In this document: positions 3,196 to 57,917 of the stretch, piece by piece
How positions within the stretch are numbered: position 1 is the first letter of the stretch
Layout: every line of letters starts with the position of its first letter
Virus record (IMG/VR): IMGVR_UViG_3300017650_000009
DNA from: a virus
Taxonomy: Duplodnaviria > Heunggongvirae > Uroviricota > Caudoviricetes
Length of the DNA stretch: 64,000 nt
Direction: 5' to 3' (one strand)
Notes under the pieces: generated by a model
Told to the model about the DNA's origin: nothing
What the model saw: only the letters and a program-made list of their open reading frames with translations
Database searches by the model: none
Translations under genes and position numbers: made by a program

Positions 3196-3238
3196 TAATC
3201 CCGGTAAACATAAATAGTACAAAATCCGGGAGACCAGC

Positions 3239-3520
3239 ATGGCAGACTACTTGCAAGAACTTAGAGCTTATATAAATCTTACTGATACTCGCTATCAGCA
3301 AGATGAAGCACCTGAGGATCCTTTTGTTGCTGAAAACCATGCAATTGATATTGCTTCCGATGATGATTCTATTATTGAGAGCTTGGAGCTTCTTCGATTT
3401 AAACTTTTGAATGTTCGTTTAACTGAAGGCACTTCCGACTATGCGTTGGGGTACGAAGAAGCTTGTATAAAGGTTGTAGAAATGATCGATGGGATCCTGC
3501 ATTCCCATCGATCACCATAA
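3239..3520 (+). CDS. hypothetical protein
   Basis: ORF track; acidic small protein. Confidence 0.3.
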   Translation: MADYLQELRAYINLTDTRYQQDEAPEDPFVAENHAIDIASDDDSIIESLELLRFKLLNVRLTEGTSDYALGYEEACIKVVEMIDGILHSHRSP

Positions 3521-3535
3521 CAGGCAGTAACTTAA

Positions 3536-3802
3536 ATGAAAAACATGCGTAGCATTATTTCGGAACTGGATCGTTTAGTCCCTGAGCGTGACAAACATCA
3601 AATTATTGAAGCCAGAGCCACTAACGTGATCGCCAGTTGCATTAATGTCATGCAGCTGATAAATGAAACTTTCTCAGATGCGGAAGCCGAAGAGTTAAAC
3701 AAACGTTTACTCGGAGCAATAAAAAATAAAGATGCTTCGAAGTTTAACCGCAAAATTACTGAGATGAAGAAACTTTCAAAGAACGCAAAGCATGACAAAT
3801 AA
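3536..3802 (+). CDS. hypothetical protein
   Basis: ORF track. Confidence 0.3.
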   Translation: MKNMRSIISELDRLVPERDKHQIIEARATNVIASCINVMQLINETFSDAEAEELNKRLLGAIKNKDASKFNRKITEMKKLSKNAKHDK

Positions 3803-4511
3803 CCTGCACAAACACCTAGAGATAATGAGAGAAGCTTCACTCCGCGACATTGCTGCGGCAGCTGGAGACGCTGTGGGTGCTATGGCGGGTAATGATAAGT
3901 CCAAGGGCCGTCAAGATGCCCGTAAACTTAAATCATACTTGACAAAGCAATATAATAAATGGCTTGGTCAAACAGGTAATGAAATTGACGAAGAGTCTCT
4001 AATGACTTTTCTTTCAGCAAAGATTGGATTCACACCCGCAAATATTCGAAAGATTTTCGATAAAGCAAAAGTCAGTGATCCAACACAAATGGAATCCCTA
4101 CAAGAAGATATTAATAAAACAGACGTCGATCGTGTAATGCAGATCGCCGCTGAATTTGCCTTTGCTCATAATTTGGTTAAGCCAACAAATCCGGAGGAAA
4201 CTCCAATGGCTAGCCGAGAAGAACCTCGCCGTGATGGTCGCCGAAGAAATCGCGATGAGGGTTCACCAGATGATATTATCAATAGCTTGCGTAACCGAGT
4301 AGAGAGTAACAAGAATGCCTACAACGTTGACAAGACAGAGCTTGTTGATGCACTGAAACAAACGGGTCTAACCCGAGAATACCTTGGCGACCTCACCGAT
4401 ATAATGGCCAAGGTAAAAGATTACAAAGACATCCAAAAAATGCCCGATCGCAACGAGATTATGAATCAGCTTGCTAAGGTTGGATTTGCTTTCTTCAAGT
4501 CAACACGTTAA
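3792..4511 (+). CDS. hypothetical protein
   Basis: ORF track; ATGA-type overlap with upstream ORF. Confidence 0.4.
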   Translation: MTNNLHKHLEIMREASLRDIAAAAGDAVGAMAGNDKSKGRQDARKLKSYLTKQYNKWLGQTGNEIDEESLMTFLSAKIGFTPANIRKIFDKAKVSDPTQMESLQEDINKTDVDRVMQIAAEFAFAHNLVKPTNPEETPMASREEPRRDGRRRNRDEGSPDDIINSLRNRVESNKNAYNVDKTELVDALKQTGLTREYLGDLTDIMAKVKDYKDIQKMPDRNEIMNQLAKVGFAFFKSTR

Positions 4512-4519
4512 TTGACTTT

Positions 4520-5776
4520 GTGCTCATATCCTGCTTAATTGGGGATATGAGCATCAAACATTTTCACGACCTACCAATCAAAACAATTCGCGCAGCTTTT
4601 GCTGAGTCTTCTACTTGGCTAATTAATGAGAAATATGATGGTAGCTATATTCGTGCAGGTTTGGATGCACTGGGACAGTTTTATACCGCACGTAAAGGGT
4701 TGAAGCCAGTTTACTCATATAGGGACTGGGATCCAAAACCATGGGCCGATGCATTTAGATCCGCACATATTGCGTTAGAGTCGTTTGTTGATCGACTCGA
4801 CAGTATGGGGGTAATCAAACCGGGCGACCATATGGATTTTGAGATTATATATGGTAGGCTTCCCAATACTATTGCGTATCCGCATTATTTGGCAAACACT
4901 CTCATCATGTTTGCCACAAATAATAATGAAATCAAAAACCACACCACAACGCTCATGCATAATGATTTGTTTCTACTTGAACATCCGGGGCTATCCTCGG
5001 AAGGTTCAGTTAAAGTCATGTATGATGAATGGACTACTCATCACGGTAGAAGAAAAACTCGTATAAGAACCAATCGAACATGGACTTTTCTTTTTGCGTA
5101 TGATGTGAAATTCAAACATGATATGATTACCGATGAAGCCATGATTAGTATTCCGGCGTTTTTAGATCGTCATATCAAGTTCATGGGTCAGACCCTAACA
5201 ATCGAACAATTACTTGAGACTAAACTCACAAAGAAGCCAGAATGGCTCATTATTAGTGATAGTGGTTGGAAAACACACAAGCCATACTTGCTTGAACAGA
5301 TTAAGCTTGAACGCTCCAAATATCGTGCTGAATTTGCAATGCTTTGTAACCTCAACACAAGAGTTCTAAAACAGTATTGGGCTAGTTTGCATTCGTGGCG
5401 GCAACGCAAATCATCCGAAATTGAAGGAATTGTTGTCCACTTCAAAGTTGATGGTAACCCCATTATAGCCAAGTTCGTAGACACCGAAACATTCGGGCCA
5501 GCCAATAATTTCTCACATATCGTTCGTTATTGGTTACAGGGTGGGCGCCGTCCAGAACGCCCAAGCTTCCTTTCGCGGACAAAAGATTGGCCAGTTGAAA
5601 AACGTTTGGAACGTTTGGAAGTCCTACGTACCCGTTTTATTGATAATCGTCTAAAACTCACAAAAACGTTTCGTGAAACCGAAGTATCATATTATAATAA
5701 TCAGTTGTTCGAGCGCACTGCTTTGTTATTTGCCGAAATAAAGGAAAAGTTGGAAAATGGGTGGACTGGCGTTTAA
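4520..5776 (+). CDS. ATP-dependent nucleic-acid ligase (covalent nucleotidyltransferase superfamily; motif I resembles T4 Rnl1)
   Basis: Motif I EKYDGS (KxDG; T4 Rnl1 has KEDGS); motif IV-like EGIVVHFK; size 418 aa. Confidence 0.55.
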   Translation: MLISCLIGDMSIKHFHDLPIKTIRAAFAESSTWLINEKYDGSYIRAGLDALGQFYTARKGLKPVYSYRDWDPKPWADAFRSAHIALESFVDRLDSMGVIKPGDHMDFEIIYGRLPNTIAYPHYLANTLIMFATNNNEIKNHTTTLMHNDLFLLEHPGLSSEGSVKVMYDEWTTHHGRRKTRIRTNRTWTFLFAYDVKFKHDMITDEAMISIPAFLDRHIKFMGQTLTIEQLLETKLTKKPEWLIISDSGWKTHKPYLLEQIKLERSKYRAEFAMLCNLNTRVLKQYWASLHSWRQRKSSEIEGIVVHFKVDGNPIIAKFVDTETFGPANNFSHIVRYWLQGGRRPERPSFLSRTKDWPVEKRLERLEVLRTRFIDNRLKLTKTFRETEVSYYNNQLFERTALLFAEIKEKLENGWTGV

Positions 5777-6620: not shown

Positions 6621-7266
6621 AATACATGATGTAGCTCAAAAAGAACAAATAGACGAATCAAGCGTTATCCGCACCATCGATCAGTTGGGCAAATACACTG
6701 CTCGCGATATTGCGGATTTCGCTTTTCTTCATTTCCTAATCCTCCATTTACTTCAAAATGATTTTGAGAGTGCGCTAGTTGTAAAGGGTCATGCGACTCG
6801 TACCCTACAGATGGGCGGACACTTCAAACGTTTCACATTAATCGGTACGGACTTGTATATGTACCTACATGTGTTACTCGGAGGTACACGCGATCGTTTA
6901 AAGAAGAATCCAGCCAATGAGTTGTTTTGGCGTCAACTAGTCCTATCCGAACGCGAAATAAAAGATTCTCTGCAGAATATGTCCAATGGTCGACGTTTGG
7001 ATTCTACTCAATTTCGATTCCTACAAAAGTTAGAAAAAGACTTACGTGTGGATAATTCCAATTATCGTAGCTGTCGTAGACTGATTTCTGATTGGAATGA
7101 TATAACTACAAATGACCAGAGACTTGTCGTTACACGTTTGCTAATGGCTCTCCGTAGTCGTTGCCCACAAAGTGATTTGCTTGTGCCGCTACAGGATTAT
7201 GCACGTCGTAAACATATGGAACTAAAGTCTGCGAAAAACCCGGAGATTCAAAATGAGAGCAAGTGA
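6562..7266 (+). CDS. hypothetical protein
   Basis: ORF track. Confidence 0.35.
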   Translation: MTYPRTLRMKFLQQLSPHIEIHDVAQKEQIDESSVIRTIDQLGKYTARDIADFAFLHFLILHLLQNDFESALVVKGHATRTLQMGGHFKRFTLIGTDLYMYLHVLLGGTRDRLKKNPANELFWRQLVLSEREIKDSLQNMSNGRRLDSTQFRFLQKLEKDLRVDNSNYRSCRRLISDWNDITTNDQRLVVTRLLMALRSRCPQSDLLVPLQDYARRKHMELKSAKNPEIQNESK

Positions 7267-8149
7267 GCTATATGAGTTATTTGATACAAATTCTGATGTT
7301 GAATGGACTATCGATGACGACGACATGAAGGCTGGTTATTTTGAGTTAAACGGTCAAAAATTCAAAATAGAAATATATGTGAAGGATCCCGAGTTGAATA
7401 CTTGGGGAGTAATATACGGATTCATTGAAAACGGCAATGTTCGTTTGAGTCCATCTGGAGATTCTCCTCGTGATGCGTCAAAAGTCCTCGGAACCGTCAC
7501 TAATGAACTAGCCAAATTCATCAATGAACGTAAACCATCTGCATTGGTATTCAGTGGCGCGAAAGGCTACGGCTTGCATAAGCTCTACACGCTCATGCTT
7601 AGAAATTTGGAAAAGAAAATTCAAACTATTGGTTATCATGTTGAATCAAACGTGGATGGTGAAACATCAAACTTTGCAATCGTAAGCAATAAATTTGATT
7701 CCTACGATGATATTAGTTCTGATCTCCATGAGGCTTTTGATACTGAAGCGCATGTTGATTGGATTGAGCAAGAAGCAGATGGGCAAATTGGTGAATTTGA
7801 AGTAAACGGCGTCAAGTTCCAAATCTCATTTGATTCAGCAAAACCTGGAATATGGAAAGTCTACTACGGTGACATCGATGATGGCCCAGATACTAATTTT
7901 AATCCGAATGGTCGATCTGGTAATTCAGCCGTGAAAGTATTGTCTGTAGTTGTGAATATTATTTTGGATTTCATAATCCAACGTAAACCTCAAATGCTTC
8001 GTTTTTCGGGCAGTAAAGGCGTTGGTCTTGGTGCCCTATATAGTAGAATGGCAAGACATTTGGAACCACAACTAGAAAAACGTGGATACTATATCGAAAA
8101 ACAAGAAACAGGTCGCGATGACTATTTTGCGATTGTTAAGAAGGTGTGA
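7253..8149 (+). CDS. hypothetical protein with internal tandem duplication of a ~140-aa domain
   Basis: Two homologous halves: NGQKFKIEIY...RKPSALVFSGAKGYGLHKLY...GYHVE and NGVKFQISFD...RKPQMLRFSGSKGVGLGALY...GYYIE. Confidence 0.5.
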   Translation: MRASELYELFDTNSDVEWTIDDDDMKAGYFELNGQKFKIEIYVKDPELNTWGVIYGFIENGNVRLSPSGDSPRDASKVLGTVTNELAKFINERKPSALVFSGAKGYGLHKLYTLMLRNLEKKIQTIGYHVESNVDGETSNFAIVSNKFDSYDDISSDLHEAFDTEAHVDWIEQEADGQIGEFEVNGVKFQISFDSAKPGIWKVYYGDIDDGPDTNFNPNGRSGNSAVKVLSVVVNIILDFIIQRKPQMLRFSGSKGVGLGALYSRMARHLEPQLEKRGYYIEKQETGRDDYFAIVKKV

Positions 8150-8864: not shown

Positions 8865-9281
8865 ATGACTGAAAAAGTTAACGGTGCATCTTTCGCTGGC
8901 CAGGCTCTAACTGGTGGTCTTAATTTCTACAAGATTGTTACCAATCTTGACATCCAGGCAACTGGCGTTCTCAGCGATGAGTCCCAGAAGCGTTTGGACA
9001 AGCTAGTAGAAACTATTTCTCTCCGCGCACAGCCAATCATCATGTCTAAGGTTGCAGTTTCTGTTGCAACTGCTGACGACGTTGCTATTCTTCCAGGTGC
9101 AGCAGTAGGTGACGACATCTACACACTTCGTTTCGCAATCGAGCACAACAAGGCTTGGGAACTAACGAACTCTCCTGATCCTAGCCTTGCTGAATGCCTA
9201 GACGGTATCGAAGGTTTTGTTTATGATATTGCTACCACAGCAGGCAACAACGTTGCTGTTGAGCTAGTAGAAACTCTGTAA
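8865..9281 (+). CDS. abundant late (probably virion) protein, function unknown
   Basis: Late promoter + strong SD + strong intrinsic terminator; 138 aa. Confidence 0.55.
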   Translation: MTEKVNGASFAGQALTGGLNFYKIVTNLDIQATGVLSDESQKRLDKLVETISLRAQPIIMSKVAVSVATADDVAILPGAAVGDDIYTLRFAIEHNKAWELTNSPDPSLAECLDGIEGFVYDIATTAGNNVAVELVETL

Positions 9282-9300
9282 TCCTTCCTCGGAATTACAG

Positions 9301-9331
9301 CAATAAGGGACCCGGAGGATTATAGCAATTC
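9301..9331 (+). terminator. rho-independent terminator
   Basis: cccggag-(13 nt)-ctccggg followed by tttt. Confidence 0.6.
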
Positions 9332-9367
9332 TCCGGGTTTTACTTTGACTGAATTAGGGATAAAAAT

Positions 9368-11017
9368 TTAGGATTTAGATTTACGAACGTAATCTGTTAC
9401 ATCGCGTCCAATACTTTGAACTTCAACGAATTCACCCTGCTCATCATAAATTGCACGATCAATCCAATCAAGCCAACGAGTCTCACCATTGCGGGAAACC
9501 CTATATAAGATACGTTTTACATTTTGTGAGGAATTAATATCATCCAGATGTTGGAATAAACGATTATGATCACGGATATCAACAATATCCGTAAGTGTCA
9601 TTCCGGAATCAATCTTTTCTGCAAAATAATCATAGAATGTTTGGTTCATAAAATTAAGAACCAAATTTTTACCATAACAACAAACAACATCAAAAGTATT
9701 ATCAGTCATTGTTTTATATCGTTCGCGAGACAAATGTAAAAGTTGTTCCACATCCTTAAGATGCGTGATATCACGAATTACTTTAATGCGAACCTTTTCA
9801 TTCTTCCAATCAATCTCACGTTCATTTATGGCAACCTCAACTGGATTCCCACCTTTAGTCCAGAACAACGTCGTGTATGCTTGGTTCGGCGAGTTCTCCA
9901 TGTTAATGAAACGATGACGCTCTAATGGATGAATAAATGCTTCGGCTGACATCTTGCTTATCTCACTATATGAGAATCCTGTCATCTCACCTAAACGTGG
10001 ATTCCAATCCAAAAGACGCTCACCATTATGAATCATCATTGCTTCATTACTGGCTTGACCAAAGACTCTAAAATGTTCTTCAGACTCCAATAGCTCCTCA
10101 CGAGTAATGACAACATCAGTTTCATCTCTTAGAATAACAAGAATGTCTTTACCTTTTTGGATTGCACGTACTTCAAAATACGTAATCGATCCGTTGTTAT
10201 TTTCAACCTTAAGTGACCATGTTTCCAATGGATTATTCGGTGATAAACCCGCACAACCAATCTTGAATGAATCCAACTGAACAGATGTTAAGAATTCTGA
10301 TAAGTTTTTACCAATATGGGATTCCTGGATAATGGTATCAAATGCAGATGGATTGGACACATCCAAAATATTCAATTGTGTATCAATGGTAACCAAAATA
10401 TCCGGAAGAACTTGAATCATTGCATTTTGGTTCTCAAATACTTCAAGGAAACGTTGTTCGTGTTTCACGTTATCCGTAATGTCTTGAACCAAAAGCATAA
10501 CACGTGAAGTACCATCCGAATGGAGAAACTCACTTATTTTGATATTTGGGTAGAATTTTGTGCCATCAGCACGAATACCTCTGATTTCTAAGTTTCCTTG
10601 TTGGACTAACTCAAATGAAGTCAAGTTGTTCTTGTAAACACTTTTGAACTTGTCAATGGAAATCACACCACAATCGGATTCAAATAGATCTGAAAGTTTC
10701 TGGTTAAGTAAGTTAGTCTTGGAATAGCCAAAAATCTTTTCGGCTGAACCATTTGCATTTTCAAGTTTATTGTTGGGTCCAAGCAAGATTAATGCGTCTG
10801 GAATAACAAGACTTGTTGCTTCAATTTGCCTAGTGTAATCGTCGATACGATCACGCAAACTAGTCGTGACAGATTGTGCCATGCTGAGTGTACCAGCAGC
10901 GGCTTCCATAAAATCGCTATAGCTTTGTTTAGCTTTCTCGGTCTGCTCAGTTTCCTTAAGCAGTTTGTGACTTGCTTTTTTGTCCGTTTGCAGGATCTTA
11001 TTTACGAAAGACTTCAT
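9368..11017 (-). CDS. multi-PAS-domain sensor-like protein (N-terminal coiled coil, at least 3 PAS folds, no obvious output domain)
   Basis: Repeated PAS signatures, e.g. GETRWLDWIDRAIYDEQGEFVEVQSIGRDVTD and ...VRIKVIRDITHLKDVEQ. Confidence 0.6.
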   Translation of the reverse strand: MKSFVNKILQTDKKASHKLLKETEQTEKAKQSYSDFMEAAAGTLSMAQSVTTSLRDRIDDYTRQIEATSLVIPDALILLGPNNKLENANGSAEKIFGYSKTNLLNQKLSDLFESDCGVISIDKFKSVYKNNLTSFELVQQGNLEIRGIRADGTKFYPNIKISEFLHSDGTSRVMLLVQDITDNVKHEQRFLEVFENQNAMIQVLPDILVTIDTQLNILDVSNPSAFDTIIQESHIGKNLSEFLTSVQLDSFKIGCAGLSPNNPLETWSLKVENNNGSITYFEVRAIQKGKDILVILRDETDVVITREELLESEEHFRVFGQASNEAMMIHNGERLLDWNPRLGEMTGFSYSEISKMSAEAFIHPLERHRFINMENSPNQAYTTLFWTKGGNPVEVAINEREIDWKNEKVRIKVIRDITHLKDVEQLLHLSRERYKTMTDNTFDVVCCYGKNLVLNFMNQTFYDYFAEKIDSGMTLTDIVDIRDHNRLFQHLDDINSSQNVKRILYRVSRNGETRWLDWIDRAIYDEQGEFVEVQSIGRDVTDYVRKSKS

Positions 11018-11262
11018 TAGAGCTTGCCCTTAATCTCTGCTAGAACGATCTTCAAACTGTTTAGGGCTTCGGTAATCGTAATGTTACCCTTATAATAGTC
11101 CTCAAGAATCTTATCTAGTTTTGCGTCCTTCTTTTCATTTTCCTGCTTTAAGCCGCGACGTTCCCAAATCAACCATCCGATCATAGCCAAAAGAAGAGCA
11201 ATGATTGCTCCTGGACCGCCTTCAATGACAGTCGTGAGCATAATTTTAAAAATTTCTTCCAT
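11017..11262 (-). CDS. small membrane protein; start chosen at MEEIF to avoid the divergent promoter region
   Basis: TM helix GGPGAIIALLLAMIGWLIW; ATGA overlap with the downstream PAS gene. Confidence 0.4.
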   Translation of the reverse strand: MEEIFKIMLTTVIEGGPGAIIALLLAMIGWLIWERRGLKQENEKKDAKLDKILEDYYKGNITITEALNSLKIVLAEIKGKL

Positions 11263-11320
11263 TGGTTCAACCCCGGTTATACGATGCGTACTGAAATATT
11301 TATTGTATATCTGGTACCCA

Positions 11321-11353: not shown

Positions 11354-12862
11354 ATGGCCTCATCAGATGAAATTAATGTTGTGGAAATACTTGCTGGGCT
11401 CGGTATTCCTGCTGAACAAGCAAAGCAACTTTCCAATAAAATGAACGGCATTGATTATCTGAATTTGGTAAATGCCTTAGACGACGATTCGAGCGCTGGC
11501 GCATATCAGGCCCAAGTAATTCTCAAAAAGTATGGAATCAATTTGAAGGTACCACAAATGGAAAATAATCGATTGGATACAATCTTTGCTGGCATCCGTG
11601 GTGGTGCAAAGTTTGAAGATGCCGAAGCACAACTAACAACTCATGTTCGCCCAATCAGCGAAATGGATTCTCCAATCGCCGGTCTTCTAGAGGCTAGCGG
11701 ATTCAAGCAATTCGTTAAGATGGCAAATGATGCCGATGCAGAAAAGCTTCGTGATTGGCTAGAAGAACATGATATTGATTACCAAAATAATGACAAATAC
11801 ACCTTTCTTGTGCGACCATCGGATCGTGAACAGACATATCGTTTGAACAAATTTGTAGCGAACTGTCATGGCAAAACGTCCGTAATGGATGATTTAGATC
11901 AGGATAGCACGTTGGCCAATAATGTTCTTAAAAGCCCATTCAAAGGAGAATTTGGGGAAATAATTGCTACTAAGAGTGGTCAGCTACGTATCATTGATGC
12001 CGAACAGGTTACAAATTCTGTGGGTTCACCTGATTGGGTTATGATTGCAAAAAATAGTAAAGGTAAAACTTACAAAGTCCCTTATGACACAGCGAATGCA
12101 GGTCTTTATCGTGGCGGTAAGTTTCAGTTTGATGAACCTGTTGTAGAAGAAAAGAATAAAATGGCAAAAGATCTTCCAAAGAGCCGTAACCCAATTGCAG
12201 CGGGTATGGTTAAGAAAACCGGTGGCGGCGCCCATAATAGTAAAGATCCAGATCGTAAGGATCCATTCTCTCGTAAAGCCAAGCATAAGAATTCCTTTAG
12301 AGAGGAAGTAGAAATCAACGAGGACGATTCCGATCGTATTGATGAAGGAGTATTGGGTATGACAAGAGTCGATCCTATTGACATGAACCGTTTGCGTCAG
12401 CTTGCAGGTATGAAGGCACTCCCTGCGGATGCTGGTATTTCCGAAGCAATCGTAGAAGCTGATCCACTAGAACCAGAAATCGAAGTCGCTGACGATTTCG
12501 ATGATGCAGATTTGGACATGGGTAGTGACTTGGATGCTCCAGTAGATGCCGACGCATTTGGCTCAGACGATGATCTCGGTTTGGATATGGGCGATGATTT
12601 GGGCATGGATGCAGATCCAATGGATATCGGCGGAGTTCCTGGTGATCTTCCACCAGTTGACGACATGATGGGTGGCCTAGACGTTGTACCAACAAATTCC
12701 ATCGCATATGATGAAATTCTAAATAACCTCAATGCAGTACAGGCAACACTGGGTGATGTGAAGCTATCCGAGTATAAGAGTATTTTGGCAAAGCTTGATA
12801 TTCTAGCGGATCAGATCCGTTCCATGGGTCGTGATTATCTCGGTGAAAGACGCCGCAAATGA
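11354..12862 (+). CDS. late protein with highly acidic Asp/Gly-rich low-complexity C-terminal half
   Basis: DLDMGSDLDAPVDADAFGSDDDLGLDMGDDLGMDADPMDIGG. Confidence 0.5.
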   Translation: MASSDEINVVEILAGLGIPAEQAKQLSNKMNGIDYLNLVNALDDDSSAGAYQAQVILKKYGINLKVPQMENNRLDTIFAGIRGGAKFEDAEAQLTTHVRPISEMDSPIAGLLEASGFKQFVKMANDADAEKLRDWLEEHDIDYQNNDKYTFLVRPSDREQTYRLNKFVANCHGKTSVMDDLDQDSTLANNVLKSPFKGEFGEIIATKSGQLRIIDAEQVTNSVGSPDWVMIAKNSKGKTYKVPYDTANAGLYRGGKFQFDEPVVEEKNKMAKDLPKSRNPIAAGMVKKTGGGAHNSKDPDRKDPFSRKAKHKNSFREEVEINEDDSDRIDEGVLGMTRVDPIDMNRLRQLAGMKALPADAGISEAIVEADPLEPEIEVADDFDDADLDMGSDLDAPVDADAFGSDDDLGLDMGDDLGMDADPMDIGGVPGDLPPVDDMMGGLDVVPTNSIAYDEILNNLNAVQATLGDVKLSEYKSILAKLDILADQIRSMGRDYLGERRRK

Positions 12863-15953: not shown

Positions 15954-16352
15954 ATGAGATTGTCAGAGATAATCGGTAAAGGAGGGGCCAATGGCTCCTC
16001 TTCTATCCTAGAGGGTCAAACGGATAATGCCGTACAAGCGGTTATTAAGAGTGTTTTGATACCGCTAAAATCGCAGAAGGTTGAGAAGATCACAGTCGAT
16101 CAATTGCTCGATAATATCAAAATGGCTCCTCAGCTCAAGGGTATTGATTTTGATCAAAAATACCTGATTGATATACTCGGAAAATCCAGAGTGGTAAGTA
16201 AAGTACAAGCTGATCCTGAAAATGGTGGCGCAATGACCGTGTATATGGATTTTCCAGTAGGTGATCGTCAGATAGATCAAAAACAAGCTGAGCGCGAGAA
16301 AGAAGATATTCGCAAAGCTGCGGTAAAACAGGTTAAGGATAAACTCAAATGA
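15954..16352 (+). CDS. hypothetical protein
   Basis: ORF track. Confidence 0.4.
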   Translation: MRLSEIIGKGGANGSSSILEGQTDNAVQAVIKSVLIPLKSQKVEKITVDQLLDNIKMAPQLKGIDFDQKYLIDILGKSRVVSKVQADPENGGAMTVYMDFPVGDRQIDQKQAEREKEDIRKAAVKQVKDKLK

Positions 16353-17728
16353 GTAGAAGATTGCTTGAAGGTAGAGGCATTGTAGATCACATAGATTTAG
16401 ATGGTCTTGATATTTCCATCGAAGTTGAAGCTGGCGGAACCCGTACAGGAACCAATCATAAGGGTGAACGTTGGGAAAACAAAGTTTCTGCGGCTTACGG
16501 ATATATCAAGGGAACAAATTCTCCTGATGGCGAAGCTCTTGATGTATGGGTTAAAAAGAATCCCAAAGAAGGCAAGCAAGTCTATGTTGTGCATCAGCTT
16601 ACACCAGATGGTTCCAAGTTCGATGAAGACAAAGTAATGCTTGGTTATTCTAGCCGCGATGAAGCAATCAAAGCATTTAAGGCTCACGCATTCAAGCCAA
16701 CAGAAATGTTCGGCGGTTGTTCTGAATTTCAAATGGAACACTTTAAGGTGATTGCGTATGCAGCGCGTAAGAGTTCCGTAATGATTGCATCACAGAAAAT
16801 GTATGATGATTTTGTTGAGCGTAAACTGTTACCACGTGGCATTAAAAGCCCAATTCAGCTTGCGCAAGTTGTTAAGGAAGGTGCAGATATGAATGCATTG
16901 AGAATCACCTATAAGAATCCAATCGTTGTAGAATCGGCATTTGATCTAGCCCTTCGCAACGACATTAACGTTCTTCGTACAAACTTGGAATTAGTATTTG
17001 AGAAGGTAAATGATCTCAGGGAATTCATTAGAGTTATTGATGAAACCCAAGAAGATCGTGCACATTTGGGCGACCTTCATTCGTGTTTACCTGAAAGCAT
17101 GAGTGAAATCACAGAAGCAAATGAAGCAGAAGCTCATTTGATGAGTGAGCCTGATTGCACAGTTGAAGAACCAAAAGAAGATCCAACAAATACGGATAGC
17201 CCATTCACACATACACCAATCGATGGAATTGATGAAATTCTTATTCGTGCGGGCGTGAAACGCGCGGTAGTTGAATCAACTTGGACCCCATTGGTTCATA
17301 AGACACGCGAAGTTGTTAGTGGTATCAACGAATCAACAAACCAAGCTATCGCCCAGTATATGGTTAATTACGCCGTGAAGAAGCAAAGAGCACTCATGGA
17401 GTCCGTTACTGCTTTGGATATTGAGTCGGCTACAAGACGTTTCACAAACACACTGTTGAAGTATCCAAATACACCAGCGAGTAAGATTCTCGAGGCTGTT
17501 GCGGTTCAATTAATGGGCGGAGATATCGCAGCTTTGCGTGAGCATATTGGTGCGCTTACTGGTCTATCAATTGATGAATACGCGAATGCGCTAGTAGTTC
17601 GTGAATGGGCCGGTAACAAGATCTCCAAAGAAATGTTCTCCCGTCTAATCGAATCCACTGATGCAAATTGGAATATCAATTGCCCCGATCGCGGCGAAGC
17701 TTTCAAACGCGCCGTACATTTGGTTTAA
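16349..17728 (+). CDS. protein with N-terminal inorganic-pyrophosphatase-like domain
   Basis: AAYGYIKGTNSPDGEALDVWV versus family I PPase NYGYI..T...DGDPLDVLV. Confidence 0.4.
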   Translation: MSRRLLEGRGIVDHIDLDGLDISIEVEAGGTRTGTNHKGERWENKVSAAYGYIKGTNSPDGEALDVWVKKNPKEGKQVYVVHQLTPDGSKFDEDKVMLGYSSRDEAIKAFKAHAFKPTEMFGGCSEFQMEHFKVIAYAARKSSVMIASQKMYDDFVERKLLPRGIKSPIQLAQVVKEGADMNALRITYKNPIVVESAFDLALRNDINVLRTNLELVFEKVNDLREFIRVIDETQEDRAHLGDLHSCLPESMSEITEANEAEAHLMSEPDCTVEEPKEDPTNTDSPFTHTPIDGIDEILIRAGVKRAVVESTWTPLVHKTREVVSGINESTNQAIAQYMVNYAVKKQRALMESVTALDIESATRRFTNTLLKYPNTPASKILEAVAVQLMGGDIAALREHIGALTGLSIDEYANALVVREWAGNKISKEMFSRLIESTDANWNINCPDRGEAFKRAVHLV

Positions 17729-18524: not shown

Positions 18525-18696
18525 AATCCAGAAATACCGATACGTATGAACATTCCGTTGAGTAACGGACATTCAGAACCTTTCGAGTAAGCCATCGATG
18601 AAACACTTCTTCACCAATGCGAGGGATGGCGGGTAGTTCGACCATATCGCCGCCCTTCTGATCTTGGCCATCGTACCAAATACAAACCTTAACCAT
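18523..18696 (-). CDS. small hypothetical protein (57 aa), translationally coupled
   Basis: Start overlaps upstream stop (TAATG); ends right at the terminator; below the 60-aa track cutoff. Confidence 0.35.
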   Translation of the reverse strand: MVKVCIWYDGQDQKGGDMVELPAIPRIGEEVFHRWLTRKVLNVRYSTECSYVSVFLD

Positions 18697-18911
18697 TATT
18701 CTGCTCCCTCAACTGAAGCTTCCACACCATCGACATCGATATAGCAGAAGCCGCGATCGCCAGACAATGCTGTCTTAATTTCTTCGGCAATCTGATTTGC
18801 ATATGTTTCAGAGCCAATGATAACACGCTCGACGCGCATTTCACTGCCGTAATGAGCATTGATATCATCACCGAACCAGTAAGACTTTACAACGTAAGTT
18901 TCTGTAGCCAT
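18696..18911 (-). CDS. hypothetical protein (start at MATETYV with SD aaggag)
   Basis: ORF track with start adjusted. Confidence 0.4.
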   Translation of the reverse strand: MATETYVVKSYWFGDDINAHYGSEMRVERVIIGSETYANQIAEEIKTALSGDRGFCYIDVDGVEASVEGAE

Positions 18912-18978
18912 GTTCGATCTCCTTTGTTTTGTTATTCCCAATTTAACATGGGAATAGGAGATGTCAACCGGCTAATTC

Positions 18979-26034: not shown

Positions 26035-26417
26035 TAACCCCCAAATGATAACCTATACGTGAGTGCATCACGTTTGCGCTCGAATGCCAAGAAGGTTCCA
26101 TAGATAGTGAACATGAATCGTCCCTCACATGATTGAAAGAACTCATATAGCTCTGCTATTTTTTGACTTGAGCTATCAGCCACATACGGAACACGAAACA
26201 CAGTCCAACGCAAATACAATTTCTTGTCAGCATATTCGGTTCTCGGTACATGAGTCGGCAAAGCCTCGATTGCACGAACAATTCGATCCCATTCATCGAC
26301 CGTCATCGTGTAATCCGAAACTTCCGGTTGCATGAAAGCCAATCCATTAATGTGCGAATACGCATTTGTCAAAAACATGGTCATGCCACACGTTAACAGG
26401 TTTTGGTACAAAGTCAA
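26034..26417 (-). CDS. FKLxFG-family protein (array member 6; TTG start or internal ATG)
   Basis: C-terminus ALTYRLSFGG. Confidence 0.4.
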   Translation of the reverse strand: MTLYQNLLTCGMTMFLTNAYSHINGLAFMQPEVSDYTMTVDEWDRIVRAIEALPTHVPRTEYADKKLYLRWTVFRVPYVADSSSQKIAELYEFFQSCEGRFMFTIYGTFLAFERKRDALTYRLSFGG

Positions 26418-26420
26418 ACA

Positions 26421-26448
26421 AAAACCCGACCTAAGCCGGGTTTAAGGG
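26421..26448 (-). terminator. intrinsic terminator of the tmRNA transcript
   Basis: Minus strand: aaacccggcttaggtcgggttttt. Confidence 0.6.
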
Positions 26449-26850
26449 ACGTTCTGTTTCCAAGTGTATCGCCCAAAACTCATCTGAGATTAAGCAGCGA
26501 GTGCCATCTCAGCAGAAACATTATCGTTTGCTGCATTTATAAAATCGAACATATATTAGTGTTTTGATTTCTAGCCTATCTCACCGAGGTAATCAAGGCG
26601 TCTGATTGGCTTTCCAGTTACCCAGTCCACACTCAAAACATTAATCGGTCGTATCTTACCGGTAACCTACTCGTACCTTTCGCTGCATAGTCGAAGCCTA
26701 TATCGCCCCCATCATAAACACAAAGCACTCTCCAAAAGCCGATCACTCGTCAATCTTCACAGATTGTCACCTTGTGTTTATGGTGGAGGCGCGGGGAACT
26801 GCCCCCCGGTCCTACACAACTATTGAGTTTGTATCAACAGTTACATGGGT
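26421..26850 (-). ncRNA. ssrA: circularly permuted (two-piece) tmRNA gene. In transcript order: acceptor piece (about 26843-26781, ending with T-arm + CGCCUCC-ACCA); intervening segment (26780-26711); coding piece (26710 to about 26449) with 5' GGGGGCG and tag ORF 26534-26490
   Basis: 5' GGGGGCGAUAUAGGCUUCGACUAUGCAGCGAAAGG (compare E. coli GGGGCUGAUUCUGGAUUCGACGGGAUUUGCGAAACC); acceptor stem GGGGGCG/CGCCUCC with G3.U70; T-arm CGGGG-GGCAGUU-CCCCG then ACCA; ...UAUAAAU GCA GCA AAC GAU AAU GUU UCU GCU GAG AUG GCA CUC GCU GCU UAA, peptide AANDNVSAEMALAA. Confidence 0.75.
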
Positions 26851-26880
26851 ATTTAAGCAGGATCGTCTGTTTTTGTCAAC
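26850..26880 (-). promoter_or_regulatory. sigma70-like promoter for tmRNA (TTGACA-17-TTAAAT)
   Basis: Minus strand: gTTGACAaaaacagacgatcctgcTTAAATAcc. Confidence 0.4.
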
Positions 26881-27042
26881 CACTTATCTCGAATATACTG
26901 GACAAATGTGCAGGAGGCTGAACCCCCATATAGGCAAACGATTGCGACTTGTAAATCCCACCAAAGGATCGCAGACATTCCGACGCCGAAACACACATAC
27001 CCGGCTACCTCTAGACAACGGAGAGCTTTTTCAAAAATTACT

Positions 27043-30485: not shown

Positions 30486-31115
30486 GTGTTTGCATTTCTT
30501 ATCGCTGACGAATATCTCGTCTTCAGTTGCGCACTAGCCGTGTCTTTGGCTTTTATCGCGCTCGAGTTAGCTGGAACATTTATCGGCTTCTCATTTTTCT
30601 CAGATACCCATGCGGATCATGATTTCGACCTATCCGGTGATAGCTTCTTCGCCAGCATTAGTGCGGGTATGCGTTGGATGGGATTTGGTAAAGTGCCACT
30701 CCTTGCACATTTAATCTTGCTTGCGGGATTGTTTGGTCTTATAGGGATGGTTCTACTCCATATTATCTATGGAGCAACTGGATTATATTTGAGTAACTGG
30801 GCTGCGGTGCCAATTGCTCTTATTGGAACAGTTTTTCTTTCAAATCGTTTTACCGCACTTGTGGTTAAAATCATCCCCACGGATGAAACCAACGCAATCA
30901 GTGTATCGGAACTAGTTGGTTATGAAGCAACTATTAGTGTGGGTAAGGCAACCCATACGATGCCGGCTCCTGCCAACACCGTTGACAAATACGGTACACA
31001 ACATAATTTCATGGTCTGCGCACTTGATGCAGGCACTGAACTAAACGAACGCACAAAGGTACGCCTTGTCAGTCTTACTGATAATGGTTATTTTTATGCA
31101 ACACCTTTGAATTAA
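30486..31115 (+). CDS. NfeD-like membrane protein (partner of SPFH proteins)
   Basis: N-terminal TM helices + C-terminal OB-like beta domain; immediately upstream of flotillin; GTG start after SD aaggag. Confidence 0.5.
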   Translation: MFAFLIADEYLVFSCALAVSLAFIALELAGTFIGFSFFSDTHADHDFDLSGDSFFASISAGMRWMGFGKVPLLAHLILLAGLFGLIGMVLLHIIYGATGLYLSNWAAVPIALIGTVFLSNRFTALVVKIIPTDETNAISVSELVGYEATISVGKATHTMPAPANTVDKYGTQHNFMVCALDAGTELNERTKVRLVSLTDNGYFYATPLN

Positions 31116-31133
31116 CAGAAGGATCTGCCTTTA

Positions 31134-32888
31134 ATGGAAAATATCATCTTTATGGCAATTGTTGCTCTAGTAGCAATTCTAGTCGTTGGCGTTTTTGGTT
31201 TTATCGTTGCTCGGCTTTATAAGCGCGCTTCGAAGGAAACAGCTTTTGTACGTACTGGTGCTGGTGGTCAGAAAGTCGTCAAGGACGGCGGTGCCCTCAT
31301 TATTCCGGTTCTGCATGATACACTTGATATCAATATGCAGACACTCAAGCTGGAAGTTTCTCGTACTGGCCAAGACGCACTTATTACGCATGATCGTATG
31401 CGTACGGATGTTACCGCAACATTCTTCGTTCGTGTCAAGCCGGATAATGATGCAATTGCACAGGCCGCACAGACCCTTGGTCGCCGGACTCAGAACCCAG
31501 ACCTTCTCAAGGCTGTTATTGAAGATAAGTTCATCGATGCTTTGCGTTCGGTTGCTTCTTCGATGGAACTGAAGGACTTGCATGAAAAGCGTTCGGACTT
31601 CGTGCAGAAGGTTAAGACCACTGTTGAAGAAGATCTGAAGACTAATGGTCTCGAACTTGAATCGGTCTCTTTGACTCGTTTGGATCAGACGGATCAGAAG
31701 TTCTTGAATCCAAACAATGCGTTCGATGCTGAAGGTCTCACCAATCTTGCAAAGATCACGCAGGAAAAGGCTCGCGAACGTAACGAAATCGAGCAGACCG
31801 CTCGCGTTGCTATTGAGAAGCGCAACTTCGAAGCGAACCAGGAATCGCTCGCGATCCGCCAGTCTGATGAGTTCGCCCGTCTTGATCAGGAACGTCAGGT
31901 TGAAACTCGCAAGGCCGAGCAGGAAGCTCAGCTTGCCCAGCAGCGCGCCGATCGCAAGCGTGAAGCCGATGTTGCGGCAATCGAAGCTGAAAAGCAAACT
32001 GAACTTGCTCGTACAACGTCAAACCAGGAAACTGCATTGGCTCGCACCGAAGCAAATAAGCGTCAGAAGGAAGCTGAAATTACCGCAAACCAGCAGCTTC
32101 GTATTGCTGAGCAGAACCAACAGATTGCTTTGAACGCTAAGTCTGAGGAAGAATCCAAGTCTCGTGCTATCGCGGATACTGAACGTGCAAATGCTGTTGC
32201 GGCTGCAGAATCGGTTAAGACTGCAGAAGCTGTCGCAACGGCGGAACGTTTGAAGCGCGTTGCGATCATCGAAGCCGAACAGGAAGCTGGCCGCAAGGCT
32301 ACCGAAATTACGGTTCAGGCAAAGGCTGAATTCGAAGCTTCGGATCTTCGTACAAAGGCACGTCTCAAGGACGCCGAAGCACGTGAGCGTGAGCTTACTG
32401 TTGAAGCTGAAGGTAAGCTCAAGATCAACGAAGCTGAAAACTCCTTGAGCCCTGAACAGATTGCACTTCGTCTTCGTACAACTGTTGTGCAGGCACTTCC
32501 TGGTATTCTCGAGCAGATGGTTGCTCCAATGAAGGCAGTCAAGGACGCACGTATCGTTACGATCAACGGTACGGGTGTTGGTGGTGCGGTCGCAGGTGGC
32601 ACTACTGGTTCGAATACTACTTCGGTTCCAGAGCAGCTTACCAATTCGTTGCTCAACTACCGTTCACAGGCCCCACTTGCTGATGCTCTTGGTAAGCTTG
32701 TTGGTATGAACCTCAATGGTTCGCTCAACGATATCATCCCTGATGATCTTCTAAGCGGTGAAGATGGTTTGCTTGCTCCGGTAGCGGCTGTGGCTCAGGT
32801 TGCTGACACAAAGACCAATACCGTACAGAAGGAAGACCAGGAACTGAAGAATATTCAGCACTTGGCTGGTATCGACACTAAGAAGTAA
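31134..32888 (+). CDS. flotillin-like SPFH/band-7 protein (FloT/YqiK-like)
   Basis: N-terminal TM, SPFH core (YKRASKETAFVRTGAGGQKVV...), long Ala/Glu-rich coiled coil with EA repeats. Confidence 0.75.
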   Translation: MENIIFMAIVALVAILVVGVFGFIVARLYKRASKETAFVRTGAGGQKVVKDGGALIIPVLHDTLDINMQTLKLEVSRTGQDALITHDRMRTDVTATFFVRVKPDNDAIAQAAQTLGRRTQNPDLLKAVIEDKFIDALRSVASSMELKDLHEKRSDFVQKVKTTVEEDLKTNGLELESVSLTRLDQTDQKFLNPNNAFDAEGLTNLAKITQEKARERNEIEQTARVAIEKRNFEANQESLAIRQSDEFARLDQERQVETRKAEQEAQLAQQRADRKREADVAAIEAEKQTELARTTSNQETALARTEANKRQKEAEITANQQLRIAEQNQQIALNAKSEEESKSRAIADTERANAVAAAESVKTAEAVATAERLKRVAIIEAEQEAGRKATEITVQAKAEFEASDLRTKARLKDAEARERELTVEAEGKLKINEAENSLSPEQIALRLRTTVVQALPGILEQMVAPMKAVKDARIVTINGTGVGGAVAGGTTGSNTTSVPEQLTNSLLNYRSQAPLADALGKLVGMNLNGSLNDIIPDDLLSGEDGLLAPVAAVAQVADTKTNTVQKEDQELKNIQHLAGIDTKK

Positions 32889-32903
32889 TTCTTAGTTTTA
32901 CGG

Positions 32904-32930
32904 AAAAGGGGACTTCGGTCCCCTTTTTGT
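32904..32930 (+). terminator. rho-independent terminator
   Basis: aaggggac-ttcg-gtcccctt + tttg. Confidence 0.6.
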
Positions 32931-32961
32931 TTGACTTTTTACCAAAACAAAGCTAAAAGGG

Positions 32962-33690
32962 ATGAAATCGAAGGAGATACCTGTGGGTTATATTAAGCAA
33001 AAAGGATTAAAAATGAACCAAGCCATGAACATCATTTATAGCTTGGTTGCCGGCTTTAGTGTCGGGGTATCAATCTTCTTCGGTGTGTTTCTTACATTCG
33101 GTGTGGGCATTGGCCCCTTTATGATTGCAGCTATGGGCGGTGCAATCGGTATGATTCTCACCACTGCTTATGTTTGTGATAAACTCCATAACTTGCAATG
33201 GAATAAAGAACGTAAAGAAAAAGATCTCGCACTAACGTACCAGGAGTTCAATGGACTCGAAGGTCTTTCGGGTGTGGATGTGGAAGCATTCCGAAACACG
33301 ATTCTAGAAGCTCGCAAAAAGCAATCAAAAATCCAATCCATGTATGTGCATTTGCATTTGCAAAAGGATGCCAAAATCATTCTAGCAGCATCAGCTATTG
33401 CAATTTTCATGGGAGAAATTCTAGCGTATGTGAAGAAAGAACCACAGAACTATCGTGCTGTTCACAAATGGCTTGATGTATATGCGGATCAAACAATTAA
33501 CATTTTGGAACAATATGCGGATATTCACGTAGATGCGCGTGATAAGGTTCGTGACAAATTCACCGATACCATTGTGCTGGTTAAAGATAACTTGCAATCG
33601 ACTATGGAATCGCTTACAGATAACACGATTGACAATTTACAAATTGATCTGGAACTTCTTCAGGATCAAATGAAACAGTACACGCGATAA
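32962..33690 (+). CDS. membrane protein (2 TM) with cytoplasmic helical domain
   Basis: Hydrophobic segments near residues 20-70. Confidence 0.4.
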   Translation: MKSKEIPVGYIKQKGLKMNQAMNIIYSLVAGFSVGVSIFFGVFLTFGVGIGPFMIAAMGGAIGMILTTAYVCDKLHNLQWNKERKEKDLALTYQEFNGLEGLSGVDVEAFRNTILEARKKQSKIQSMYVHLHLQKDAKIILAASAIAIFMGEILAYVKKEPQNYRAVHKWLDVYADQTINILEQYADIHVDARDKVRDKFTDTIVLVKDNLQSTMESLTDNTIDNLQIDLELLQDQMKQYTR

Positions 33691-33700
33691 GGAGCACGAA

Positions 33701-34789
33701 ATGAAAGTAACCAAAATCAAAGACACTGAGCTGGATTTGCTACCGATCACAAGTGATCCCAATGGTATCGATTTATCGAAGGTTCCAGCAATCCGTGATG
33801 GTCTTGATATTACGAAAACCAACGATATTATTGGTTTTGGTTCCGGTGCTCAGAAGAAGGTTACCGACATCAGCCGCAAAATGCTTGAAGGCGTGAAGTC
33901 CAAGGATACTGGCGTTGTCGGTGGGCTGCTCGTCGATATGGTTACATCTATGCGTGGCCTTGATTTCGACAAAGTCAAGCCTGGATCAAAGGTTGGATTC
34001 CTCGGCAAGCTTTTGGGTCGTTTGACTCCAGTGGCCAAGTTTATTCAGCAGTACGAGGGTATCTCTTCACACATTTCAGTTGTGGTTGCTGATCTTGAAA
34101 CCAACAAAGTCGCCCTTATGCGCGACGTGAAGGTTCTTGATCGTCTTTATGCGACGACACTTACGTATTTCCATGAACTTGCCGCCTACATTGAAGCGGG
34201 GACACAAAAGCTTGAACAGCTTGATAAAACGGAAATCCCAGCCCTGAAAGCTATAGCTGAAAAGTCCGGGGATATGCTGGATGCACAGAAAGTTCAGGAC
34301 CTTGTTCATGCACGTGATATGCTTGACCGAAAGGTGCACGACCTAAAGCTAACACGCCAAGTCGTCATGCAAAGCCTACCAAGTATTCGCATGGTTCAGC
34401 AGAACGATACTGATTTGATTGAAAAGATCAATTCACAAATCACCAACACCATTCCGGCATGGGAACAGCAATTGGCCCTTGCTGTTGCTATGTGGCGTTC
34501 AGCTGATGCGACAAAAACAACTCGTGCGGTTTCGGATTATTCCAATGAATTGATCAAGCAAAATGCAAAAATGCTGCGCCAGTCAAATGCGGAAGCACGT
34601 ACGGAAATCGAACGTGGCATCTATGATGTTGAAGCAATCAAGGCAGCAAATGAAGAATTGATTGCAGCCATTGGTGAATCCATTGCTATCGCTAATGCAG
34701 GCAAAGAAAAGCGCTTGCAAGCATCAGCAGAACTCATCGAGTGTGAGAATAAGCTTCGTGATGTCTTAGCGAGCGCTTCTACTAATTAA
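33701..34789 (+). CDS. TelA/KlaB-like toxic-anion-resistance family protein (tentative)
   Basis: 362 aa, helical; conserved-looking N-terminal region GFGSGAQKKV...; size and context (with SPFH/NfeD) like Bacillus YceH. Confidence 0.45.
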   Translation: MKVTKIKDTELDLLPITSDPNGIDLSKVPAIRDGLDITKTNDIIGFGSGAQKKVTDISRKMLEGVKSKDTGVVGGLLVDMVTSMRGLDFDKVKPGSKVGFLGKLLGRLTPVAKFIQQYEGISSHISVVVADLETNKVALMRDVKVLDRLYATTLTYFHELAAYIEAGTQKLEQLDKTEIPALKAIAEKSGDMLDAQKVQDLVHARDMLDRKVHDLKLTRQVVMQSLPSIRMVQQNDTDLIEKINSQITNTIPAWEQQLALAVAMWRSADATKTTRAVSDYSNELIKQNAKMLRQSNAEARTEIERGIYDVEAIKAANEELIAAIGESIAIANAGKEKRLQASAELIECENKLRDVLASASTN

Positions 34790-43432: not shown

Positions 43433-43539
43433 GTTTTTTGATTACTCCAAGGAAGCGCTTTTTCTTCCTATTTATGTTGTTTTGGACTTGACATTTTTTG
43501 CTTTCCTGTTACGTTTGTAGAAACAATGGAGAAGATCGT

Positions 43540-57882: not shown

Positions 57883-57917
57883 TCCGGTCGACCGCAAATA
57901 TAAAGGAGAATTTTTCG

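Follow-up and report, generated by a model that had tools for sequence, protein, structure and literature searches.

Giant bacteriophages carry a fixed two-gene module in which a small membrane protein is paired with a protein made of PAS domains that has no output domain. We describe this module in a 64,000-nucleotide (nt) stretch of the IMG/VR virus record IMGVR_UViG_3300017650_000009 (Caudoviricetes), hereafter the window, where both genes lie on the minus strand as a compact unit. Judged from sequence comparisons, the module joins a transmembrane (TM)-hairpin protein of ~80–95 aa to a protein composed of a family-specific N-terminal helix (N-helix) and two to four PAS domains. The association of the two genes is robust across the sequences compared, and their function is conjecture. 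We tentatively propose that the pair is a phage-specific, late-expressed and membrane-tethered PAS adaptor or sensor acting via protein contacts, a reading that we consider possible rather than probable, and as its output we favour the control of some late event at the membrane, of which the timing of lysis is the most plausible. Each of the ingredients has precedents, in PAS-only proteins, in phage PAS receptors and in small membrane modulators; what is new is that they are combined in a fixed way, in giant phages only, with an N-helix particular to the family and with a late-type promoter motif.

The open reading frame (ORF) of the 549-aa PAS protein lies where an earlier note, made from these letters alone, had placed it, and the ORF of the small protein lies directly upstream on the same strand (Table 1). 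The small product has 81 residues and not 82 as that note had counted, and its stop codon meets the PAS start in a cTAATGa junction, a 1-nt overlap in place of the ATGA overlap previously reported; the homologous genes of Agrobacterium phage Atu_ph07 overlap by 4 nt. Taken mechanically, the small gene extends to position 11451 (144 aa). We rejected this longer form because all 32 aligned homologues are 70–97 aa in length (most of them 81–86) with starts equivalent to 11262, and because it would overlap the divergent gene that starts at 11354. At the other end of the unit, an 86-nt spacer between the PAS stop codon and the convergent neighbour holds two terminator-like hairpins, one of which was picked up independently by a terminator scan. 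Given the hairpin spacer and the convergent gene, the pair forms a compact unit, inserted opposite in direction to the genes around it. Co-transcription of the two genes is suggested by their common strand and overlap, by a promoter-like motif found before the small gene only and hairpins found behind the PAS gene only, and by their conserved adjacency.

Both profile searches and structure prediction identify the larger protein as a PAS array. Pfam PAS_9 matches it in three stretches with 81.6 bits (cut-off 27; E = 5.8e-23), and PAS (52.3 bits, cut-off 22.6), PAS_8 (43.7, 21.8), PAS_4 (38.6, 23.1) and PAS_3 (37.7, 25.6) all score above their curated cut-offs, as does NCBIfam TIGR00229 (119.4 bits, cut-off 22.9; E = 1e-34). 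An AlphaFold2 model built from a 19-sequence family alignment (mean predicted local distance difference test score, pLDDT, of 73) starts with a long helix, continues with four alpha/beta modules joined by helices (pLDDT around 75–88) and closes with an 8-residue C-terminal helix; in all four modules the model predicts the five-stranded antiparallel sheet and flanking helices of the PAS fold. Foldseek returned 478 matches in the PDB at E ≤ 1e-3, and the top ones are all multi-PAS proteins, led by PpsR (E = 7.6e-17) and followed by DosP, Brucella LOV-PAS-HK, bHLH-PAS proteins and FixL. Profiles and predicted fold both point to PAS and not to another alpha/beta fold, which bears out the earlier description of a cytoplasmic protein of several PAS domains, helical at its N-terminus and lacking an output domain; where that description counted "at least three" PAS folds there are four, preceded by a helix of ~70 residues.

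Scanned singly against Pfam, PAS1, PAS3 and PAS4 give E-values of 1e-10, 1e-6 and 4.5e-5, respectively, with PAS1 and PAS3 above the PAS_9 cut-off and PAS4 just below it. PAS2 alone is not detected by Pfam; in a profile–profile comparison with hhalign it matches PAS1 with a probability of 95.4% (E = 2e-8), and it reads as a divergent, lineage-specific duplicate of PAS1. The N-helix alone finds nothing in Pfam, the nearest cellular homologue aligns from residue 72 onwards only, and the helix is phage-specific, with no cellular counterpart. Its ladder of small residues (S32, A39, A40, T43, A47, T51 and L54) is invariant in distant members, and residues 36–72 are modelled with low confidence as a monomer (pLDDT 34–50), which is what one would expect if the helix requires a partner. 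The PAS proteins contain no transmembrane hydrophobic segment.

At E ≤ 1, Pfam finds no HisKA, HATPase_c, GGDEF, EAL, helix-turn-helix (HTH) or any other non-PAS domain in the 549-aa protein. A DHp domain of a sensor kinase is missing by each sign that we looked for: there is no HisKA-type family, no invariant histidine in residues 1–72 or after PAS4, and the chain ends 10 residues past PAS4. The HATPase_c search was equally empty, and the close family found in the protein search described below (P0001–P0018) contains neither PF02518 nor PF00512. Nor is there an HTH of the kind found in the PAS-HTH receptors VqmA(Phage) and PpsR, only the 8-residue helix following PAS4. The Atu_ph07 homologue is gp49 of Attai et al. 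2018 (PMC6102473), and its GenBank entry (MF403008, 4977–6587; AUZ94861.1) carries the name histidine kinase. Since gp49 and all its relatives lack HisKA and HATPase_c, this name is wrong, a database misnomer that the present finding corrects.

The small protein has one evident membrane segment, whose best Kyte–Doolittle 19-mer mean is 1.87 (1.73–2.87 over 32 homologues). Only one lysine or arginine lies on its N-terminal side and six lie in the first 15 residues on the C-terminal side (family means of 0.66 on the N-terminal and 5.2 on the C-terminal side, the latter over 15 residues). Hydropathy and the positive-inside flank agree with the single TM segment proposed earlier, and the charge imbalance predicts an N-out/C-in topology, in which both conserved helical parts, the hairpin of the small protein and the N-helix of its partner, should face the cytoplasm. 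AlphaFold2 (mean pLDDT 80.6) places helices at residues 2–14, 17–58 and 63–80, with a turn at G59–N60. The hairpin consensus, KKDxKIDKIIDDYYKGNxTLTEALNSLKxVLxEIKGKL, is nearly invariant at 49–54% overall identity, and 38 close homologues range from 51 to 97 aa. Searches of the window protein against Pfam, NCBIfam and PHROGs gave sub-threshold noise only (CcmD, DUF4381, phrog_31714), and the best PHROG matches of 32 family members were families of unknown function and one Rz-like spanin (E = 0.039). An 81-aa ORF at 18696–18941, checked as a possible paralogue, is unrelated.

An N-helix/PAS gene comes after the small gene at every locus with downstream sequence, about 25 in several neighbourhoods. 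The two occur together in the window, in Sinorhizobium phage Phosso, in Atu_ph07 and in nine metagenomic contexts. All 15 testable IMG/VR loci are paired, 14 of them directly, with inter-gene gaps of −4 to +123 nt and N-helix hidden Markov model E-values of 4e-36 to 4e-10, and one with an inserted ORF; two further IMG/VR loci that end before the downstream gene were left out of this count. Of the 17 IMG/VR contigs, 10 are longer than 190 kb and the longest measures 608 kb. The only split locus lies on IMGVR_UViG_3300034072_000758 (517 kb), where a 236-aa reverse-strand ORF (3718–4428, −), which may be a mobile element, separates the small gene (3414–3665) from its PAS partner (4504–5586).

Among phage records relatives of the pair are rare. 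At megablast level the locus has no nucleotide match among 50,697 phage records, and a protein search of the same records finds relatives of either protein in just two cultured phages, Phosso (469 kb; PAS protein 47.7% and small protein 72.8% identical) and Atu_ph07 (490 kb; 30.6% and 39.5%). Neither protein has a PHROG family. These figures are consistent with the view, put forward from the window alone, that PAS arrays are rare in lytic phages. Identical copies of both proteins exist in public assemblies, and the longest such contig for the small protein measures 434,884 bp. Searched against 5.8 billion proteins, the PAS protein retrieves a tight PAS-only family (P0001–P0018, most about 550 aa, 934–298 bits), beyond which scores fall from 298 to 91 bits and the matches are ordinary cellular multi-PAS kinases, the nearest of them generic and ~24% identical. 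The profile of the small protein, searched against 1.84 billion cluster representatives, matches 215 at E ≤ 1e-3, of which 109 reach E ≤ 1e-10; almost all measure 78–105 aa. The 185,579 species-representative genomes of bacteria and archaea yielded no relative. The top match of the profile search (P0068, 3151 aa, matched in 28 stretches at profile positions ~10–54) is probably a repetitive or low-complexity artefact.

The neighbours of the pair differ from phage to phage while the pair itself stays: virion genes surround it in the Atu_ph07 group, and elsewhere it is accompanied by dCMP deaminase and RNA ligase, by a 5'-3' exonuclease or by PRA-PH. The number of PAS domains also varies, from two (proteins of 283–309 aa) through three (360–440 aa) to four (549–558 aa), and the Phosso protein lacks exactly PAS2. 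Constant in all variants are the N-helix, PAS1 and the hairpin of the small protein. In one distant pair (L012) the small protein is still 53% identical, as against 23% for its partner. The window contains both halves of the module, including the N-helix pattern S..AA..T...A...T..L.

Upstream of the small gene lies the heptamer ATAAATA, which we take to be the core of the T4-type late promoter TATAAATA. The window holds nine copies on both strands, compared with about 21.5 expected and a minimum of 10 in 200 shuffles, and all nine stand 15–69 nt upstream of a same-strand start codon, where ~4.5% of positions would fall by chance. They lie at 3210, 8825, 11322, 13771, 22213, 24389 and 56601 on the plus strand and at 11303 and 43475 on the minus strand; the genes behind them include the small gene, both genes flanking the pair and a 1192-aa virion-type gene. 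Depletion and position together point to selection against the motif inside genes, and the heptamer can serve as a marker of late promoters in this phage group. At 10 or more related loci, some of them distant and in other neighbourhoods, it is kept 25–55 nt upstream of the small gene. The full TATAAATA octamer is no more frequent than expected (3 copies versus 3.1), and only the position bias of the heptamer is informative. A scan for sigma-70-type promoters was at chance level (10 sites versus 7.5 expected) and was not used. Atu_ph07 encodes a candidate T4 gp55-like late sigma factor (Table S3, PMC6102473). By analogy with T4, the position of the motif, its conservation in relatives and this sigma candidate make it likely that the pair is transcribed late.

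Given the conserved features of both partners, we propose a model in which the two proteins form a receptor divided over two polypeptides. The first gene would encode an 81-aa bitopic inner-membrane protein with a 14-residue N-terminus outside, a TM helix continuing into the cytoplasm and a 47-residue helical hairpin at its end. The second gene, which would be translationally coupled to the first, would provide a soluble cytoplasmic protein consisting of the N-helix and four PAS domains. The hairpin would pack on the small-residue face of the N-helix, and this contact would tether the PAS array, probably a dimer, to the cytoplasmic side of the membrane. We infer contact and tethering from the conservation of both hairpin and N-helix, and the constant elements of the family (hairpin, N-helix and PAS1) include the proposed contact surfaces, which supports a complex. 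The resulting unit would be a split version of a "TM helix – linker helix – PAS" receptor. As the array has no enzymatic output domain, its state, whether set by a ligand, a metabolite or a bound partner, would be passed on by protein contact, and the likeliest target would be a late membrane event, with the small protein acting as, or on, a holin- or antiholin-like effector. The lysis genes of Atu_ph07 have not been identified (PMC6102473), which leaves a lysis role vacant. In the most specific form of the model, the split membrane receptor would read the state of the cell late in infection and set the moment of lysis, as a PAS-based counterpart of T4 lysis inhibition; it would then also be the missing lysis-control system of Atu_ph07-like phages. 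This specific form we regard as doubtful.

Several observations weigh against the tethered adaptor and its proposed output. No cofactor or ligand signature is conserved, and the PAS domains could be pure interaction scaffolds. Late expression is argued from the T4 promoters by analogy. The small protein matches no holin, antiholin, spanin or HAMP profile, and Foldseek against viral structures returns no significant structural neighbour for it (nothing at E ≤ 1e-3). It does have the outline of a holin or antiholin, with 81 aa, one TM segment and a tail rich in lysine, arginine, aspartate and glutamate, an outline that is generic and not diagnostic. For HAMP, Pfam gives no match at E ≤ 1; the AlphaFold2 model shows the TM helix running on into a helix, then the turn at G59–N60 and a second helix, together 47 residues, and the connector of a HAMP domain is much longer than this turn. 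No endolysin adjoins the pair and its immediate neighbours have no lysin domain; the endolysin-PHROG match of the ORF at 16349–17728 falls within its InPase domain. Finally, virion preparations of Atu_ph07 contain gp48, which by gene order and size is the homologue of the small protein, and not gp49, a result that a role in structure or assembly would explain no less well.

Such a role would make the small protein a component of the virion or of its assembly and the PAS protein a non-packaged assembly factor or chaperone whose PAS domains would do no more than bind proteins, an account that we hold to be fairly unlikely. Electrospray-ionisation tandem mass spectrometry of Atu_ph07 virions lists gp48 (9.11 kDa, 3 unique peptides, 37% coverage), gp49 is missing from the list, and around them gp40–47, gp50 and gp53–69 are virion proteins (Table S5, PMC6102473). 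The pair in the window likewise sits between homologues of Atu_ph07 virion-region genes and adjoins a PHROG "virion structural protein"; it has a late-type promoter in common with structural genes, and the unconserved cofactor residues would also suit an assembly factor. However, a textbook TM segment with a positive-inside flank would be unexpected in a tailed-phage particle, and other giant phages have the pair amid nucleotide-metabolism and replication genes and not amid structural ones. Moreover, the virions were purified with polyethylene glycol only, and since the same list includes a RecA-like protein, single-stranded DNA-binding protein, ribonucleotide reductase and terminase (PMC6102473), gp48 may be a membrane contaminant. 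The presence of gp48 in these preparations and the fixed giant-phage module both go beyond what a reading of a single sequence could show. The pair might instead interfere with host signalling, an idea raised in the earlier note as mimicry or titration of a host PAS partner: the tethered array would heterodimerise with the PAS domains of a host sensor kinase or chemoreceptor and titrate or rewire it. We consider this unlikely, though plausible in view of PAS biology and the precedent of MopJ. PAS arrays dimerise, multi-PAS proteins that form homo- or heterodimers (PpsR, bHLH-PAS, FixL) head the structural matches, and PAS1 is most like the PAS domain of FixL. The cultured hosts are Rhizobiaceae and the transfer-messenger RNA (tmRNA) in the window is of alphaproteobacterial type, and an output-less PAS protein acts in trans on alphaproteobacterial cell-cycle regulation (PMC4432633, PMC4620464). 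A phage-encoded output partner is also absent from the window: ten flanking ORFs have no informative domain, and a further 30 encode no two-component kinase, response regulator, GGDEF/EAL, PP2C or STAS partner. Nevertheless, the ~24% identity to cellular PAS arrays and the accompanying drop in score indicate that the array is not a recent copy of a host sensor, and a late-type promoter is unusual for host takeover. Interference would leave a dedicated, co-evolving membrane partner and an N-helix without cellular counterpart unexplained, and the many uncultivated giant phages in which the family occurs probably have varied hosts; for these reasons mimicry or titration is a poor fit.

A classical cofactor sensor, in which a PAS-bound heme or flavin reports oxygen, light or the redox or energy state of the host, concerns the input alone and would be compatible with any output; we judge it improbable. 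What speaks for it is that PAS1 aligns with the FixL heme PAS over ~120 residues (phmmer, 1dp6/2cmn; E = 5.3e-5), that the NCBIfam FixL and DosP models match weakly and far under their cut-offs, and that His330, Trp338 and His363 of PAS3 are invariant in the close family, with ligand binding by PAS3 or PAS4 being possible. However, His200 of B. japonicum FixL in the F-alpha helix ("RSRHDSY"), presumably the proximal heme ligand, aligns with Ile121, and across the family this column holds Ile, Val, Leu, Asn, Thr or Asp and in no member His. The adduct-forming cysteine of LOV domains lies in a GxNCRFLQ motif, whereas the four cysteines of the window protein (C116, C255, C448 and C449) occur in the contexts SDCGV, IGCAG and VVCCY, none of them of the NCRFLQ type, and C116 is not conserved. 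The usual ligand pocket is lined by the E-alpha/F-alpha region, which in PAS1 is the most variable stretch and contains indels; no His or Cys is invariant in the wide family, whose distant members keep only turn and structural residues; and PAS3 and PAS4 alone find no solved relative by sequence at E ≤ 1 in the PDB. With Ile121 in place of the heme histidine and no LOV cysteine context, redox or oxygen sensing, as the earlier note had envisaged, gains no positive evidence. The pattern of conservation effectively refutes a further reading, to which we assign next to no probability, namely that the PAS gene is a functionless, decayed remnant of a captured host sensor kinase whose kinase half has been lost. 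Members of the ~550-aa close family, at 33–77% identity, all end within a few residues of PAS4, 57 columns are invariant over 17 sequences (alignment A1), the gene is conserved with its dedicated partner across contigs from many samples, and hairpins and a convergent gene, with no kinase fragment, follow downstream. What has stood of the interpretation first offered for this locus is the two-gene unit, the single-pass protein and the multi-PAS protein without output, while redox sensing is not supported and mimicry or titration fits poorly.

No intracellular sensor module is commoner in bacteria than the PAS domain, and among phages we know of one well-studied case, the VqmA receptor of a temperate vibriophage. 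In the papers available to us, PAS proteins of jumbo or huge phages, Atu_ph07 included, are nowhere discussed. The closest cellular architectures are FixL, DosP and Brucella LOV-PAS-HK, which share with the phage protein the tandem PAS domains with helical linkers and figure among its top fold matches. Unlike them, the phage protein has neither DHp/CA kinase nor EAL/GGDEF domains, neither heme His nor LOV Cys, its membrane anchor is a separate polypeptide, and its N-helix has no cellular counterpart. The best structural match, PpsR of Rhodobacter sphaeroides (PDB 4hh2), is an N-Q-PAS1-PAS2 repressor in which helical PAS extensions drive oligomerisation and partner binding, not catalysis (PMC3949515); PpsR has a C-terminal HTH and is a cytoplasmic transcription factor, whereas the phage protein lacks the HTH and has a membrane protein as its partner. 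MopJ of Caulobacter crescentus, a single-domain PAS protein described as a "trans-encoded sensory domain", works via contacts (PMC4432633, PMC4620464) and is likewise an output-less PAS protein of an alphaproteobacterium; the comparison is by description and claims no sequence relationship, and MopJ is cellular, with one PAS domain and no dedicated membrane partner. VqmA(Phage) of vibriophage VP882 is a phage PAS receptor that reads host-related chemistry (PMC8284805). It combines one PAS domain with an HTH and serves a temperate, plasmid-like phage as a transcriptional lysis–lysogeny switch, whereas the pair described here has two to four PAS domains, no HTH and a membrane partner, and belongs to giant phages of lytic type.

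For the proposed output, the nearest parallel is lysis inhibition in T4, where the antiholins RI (97 aa, with an N-terminal membrane segment) and RIII (82 aa) act on the holin T. The analogy is functional only and lies in small, late-acting inner-membrane proteins that time lysis on a signal; we found no sequence or profile similarity between the T4 proteins and the pair, the T4 system uses no PAS domain, and a lysis role drawn from this analogy would be conjecture. Small membrane modulators of sensor kinases are known in MgrB and SafA, which act with PhoQ, and in MzrA, which acts with EnvZ. They resemble the small phage protein as bitopic membrane proteins of <130 aa that bind a sensory protein, but they are cellular, work on complete kinases and make mostly periplasmic or membrane contacts, whereas the phage hairpin is predicted to be cytoplasmic and its partner has no kinase.

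The pair is conserved across giant phages of 190–608 kb. If it is indeed a membrane-tethered sensor, lytic giant phages would monitor their host during infection and adjust a late step accordingly, which bears on how phages with hours-long cycles decide the moment of lysis. If the PAS protein is only an assembly factor, the pair would still be a clean new family of protein pairs, of narrower interest. Two cultured and genetically accessible systems are available, Atu_ph07 on A. tumefaciens C58 and Phosso on S. meliloti.

Table 1 Position of the gene pair and its parts in the window (MFE, minimum free energy; domain limits follow the AlphaFold2 models or hydropathy).
Feature	Position	Strand	Description
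PAS-only protein gene	9368..11017	(-)	ORF with ATG start, 549 aa
Small membrane protein gene	11017..11262	(-)	ORF, 81 aa (82 codons counting the stop)
Two hairpins, terminator-like	9276..9344	(-)	MFE -25.8 kcal/mol, z -2.68
ATAAATA motif	11297..11303	(-)	41 nt upstream of the ATG of the small gene
N-terminal family-specific helix	10802..11017	(-)	Residues 1-72; AlphaFold2 helix 2-71
PAS1	10478..10801	(-)	Residues 73-180; in every family member; nearest solved relative the FixL heme PAS
PAS2	10124..10405	(-)	Residues 205-298; missing from Phosso and all short variants
PAS3	9770..10048	(-)	Residues 324-416; strongly conserved in close relatives
PAS4	9401..9691	(-)	Residues 443-539; strongly conserved; gone in two-PAS variants
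Transmembrane segment	11164..11220	(-)	Residues 15-33, GGPGAIIALLLAMIGWLIW
Cytoplasmic helical hairpin (predicted)	11020..11163	(-)	Residues 34-81; most conserved part of the small protein

The other genes of the window are those of a T4-like giant phage and include a DnaB-like helicase, a topoisomerase II, a tail collar protein and virion proteins. It also encodes ClpX with a zinc finger, followed with a 4-nt overlap by translation initiation factor 3 (56638–58439, +), and, ~11.5 kb upstream of ClpX, a nucleotidyltransferase of the CCA-adding/poly(A)-polymerase type (43498–45132, +); these three genes also head the gene list of Atu_ph07. A permuted, two-piece tmRNA lies at 26399–26917 (−), with Rfam scores of 73.2 bits for alpha_tmRNA and 90.4 bits for tmRNA_permuted, and its tag peptide is AANDNVSAEMALAA according to ARAGORN. 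Its alphaproteobacterial type points to an alphaproteobacterial host and fits one of rhizobial type.

Close to the pair, the divergent neighbour (11354–12862, +; 502 aa) has an exact TATAAATA 26 nt upstream and no family match, and its C-terminal end is of low complexity, strongly acidic and rich in D, L, G and M; the Atu_ph07 gene at this place encodes only 122 aa. On the other side, the two halves of a 298-aa protein (7253–8149, +) are alike (NGQKFKIEIY/NGVKFQISFD), one of them matching DUF6934 (E = 5e-8), and the protein appears to be an internal duplication. A 459-aa protein (16349–17728, +) has an N-terminal InPase domain (PF18823, E = 9e-36); in relatives its equivalent lies a few genes from the pair, and the corresponding position in Atu_ph07 is that of gp42, a virion protein annotated as "mega protein" (PMC6102473). 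Farther away, at 30486–34789 (+), a YqiJ/NfeD-like membrane protein, a 584-aa flotillin/SPFH protein, an XpaC-like "Halogen_Hydrol" protein and TelA (E = 1e-101) are encoded together, in what looks like a phage-borne flotillin/TelA membrane module of inner-membrane stress-type genes.

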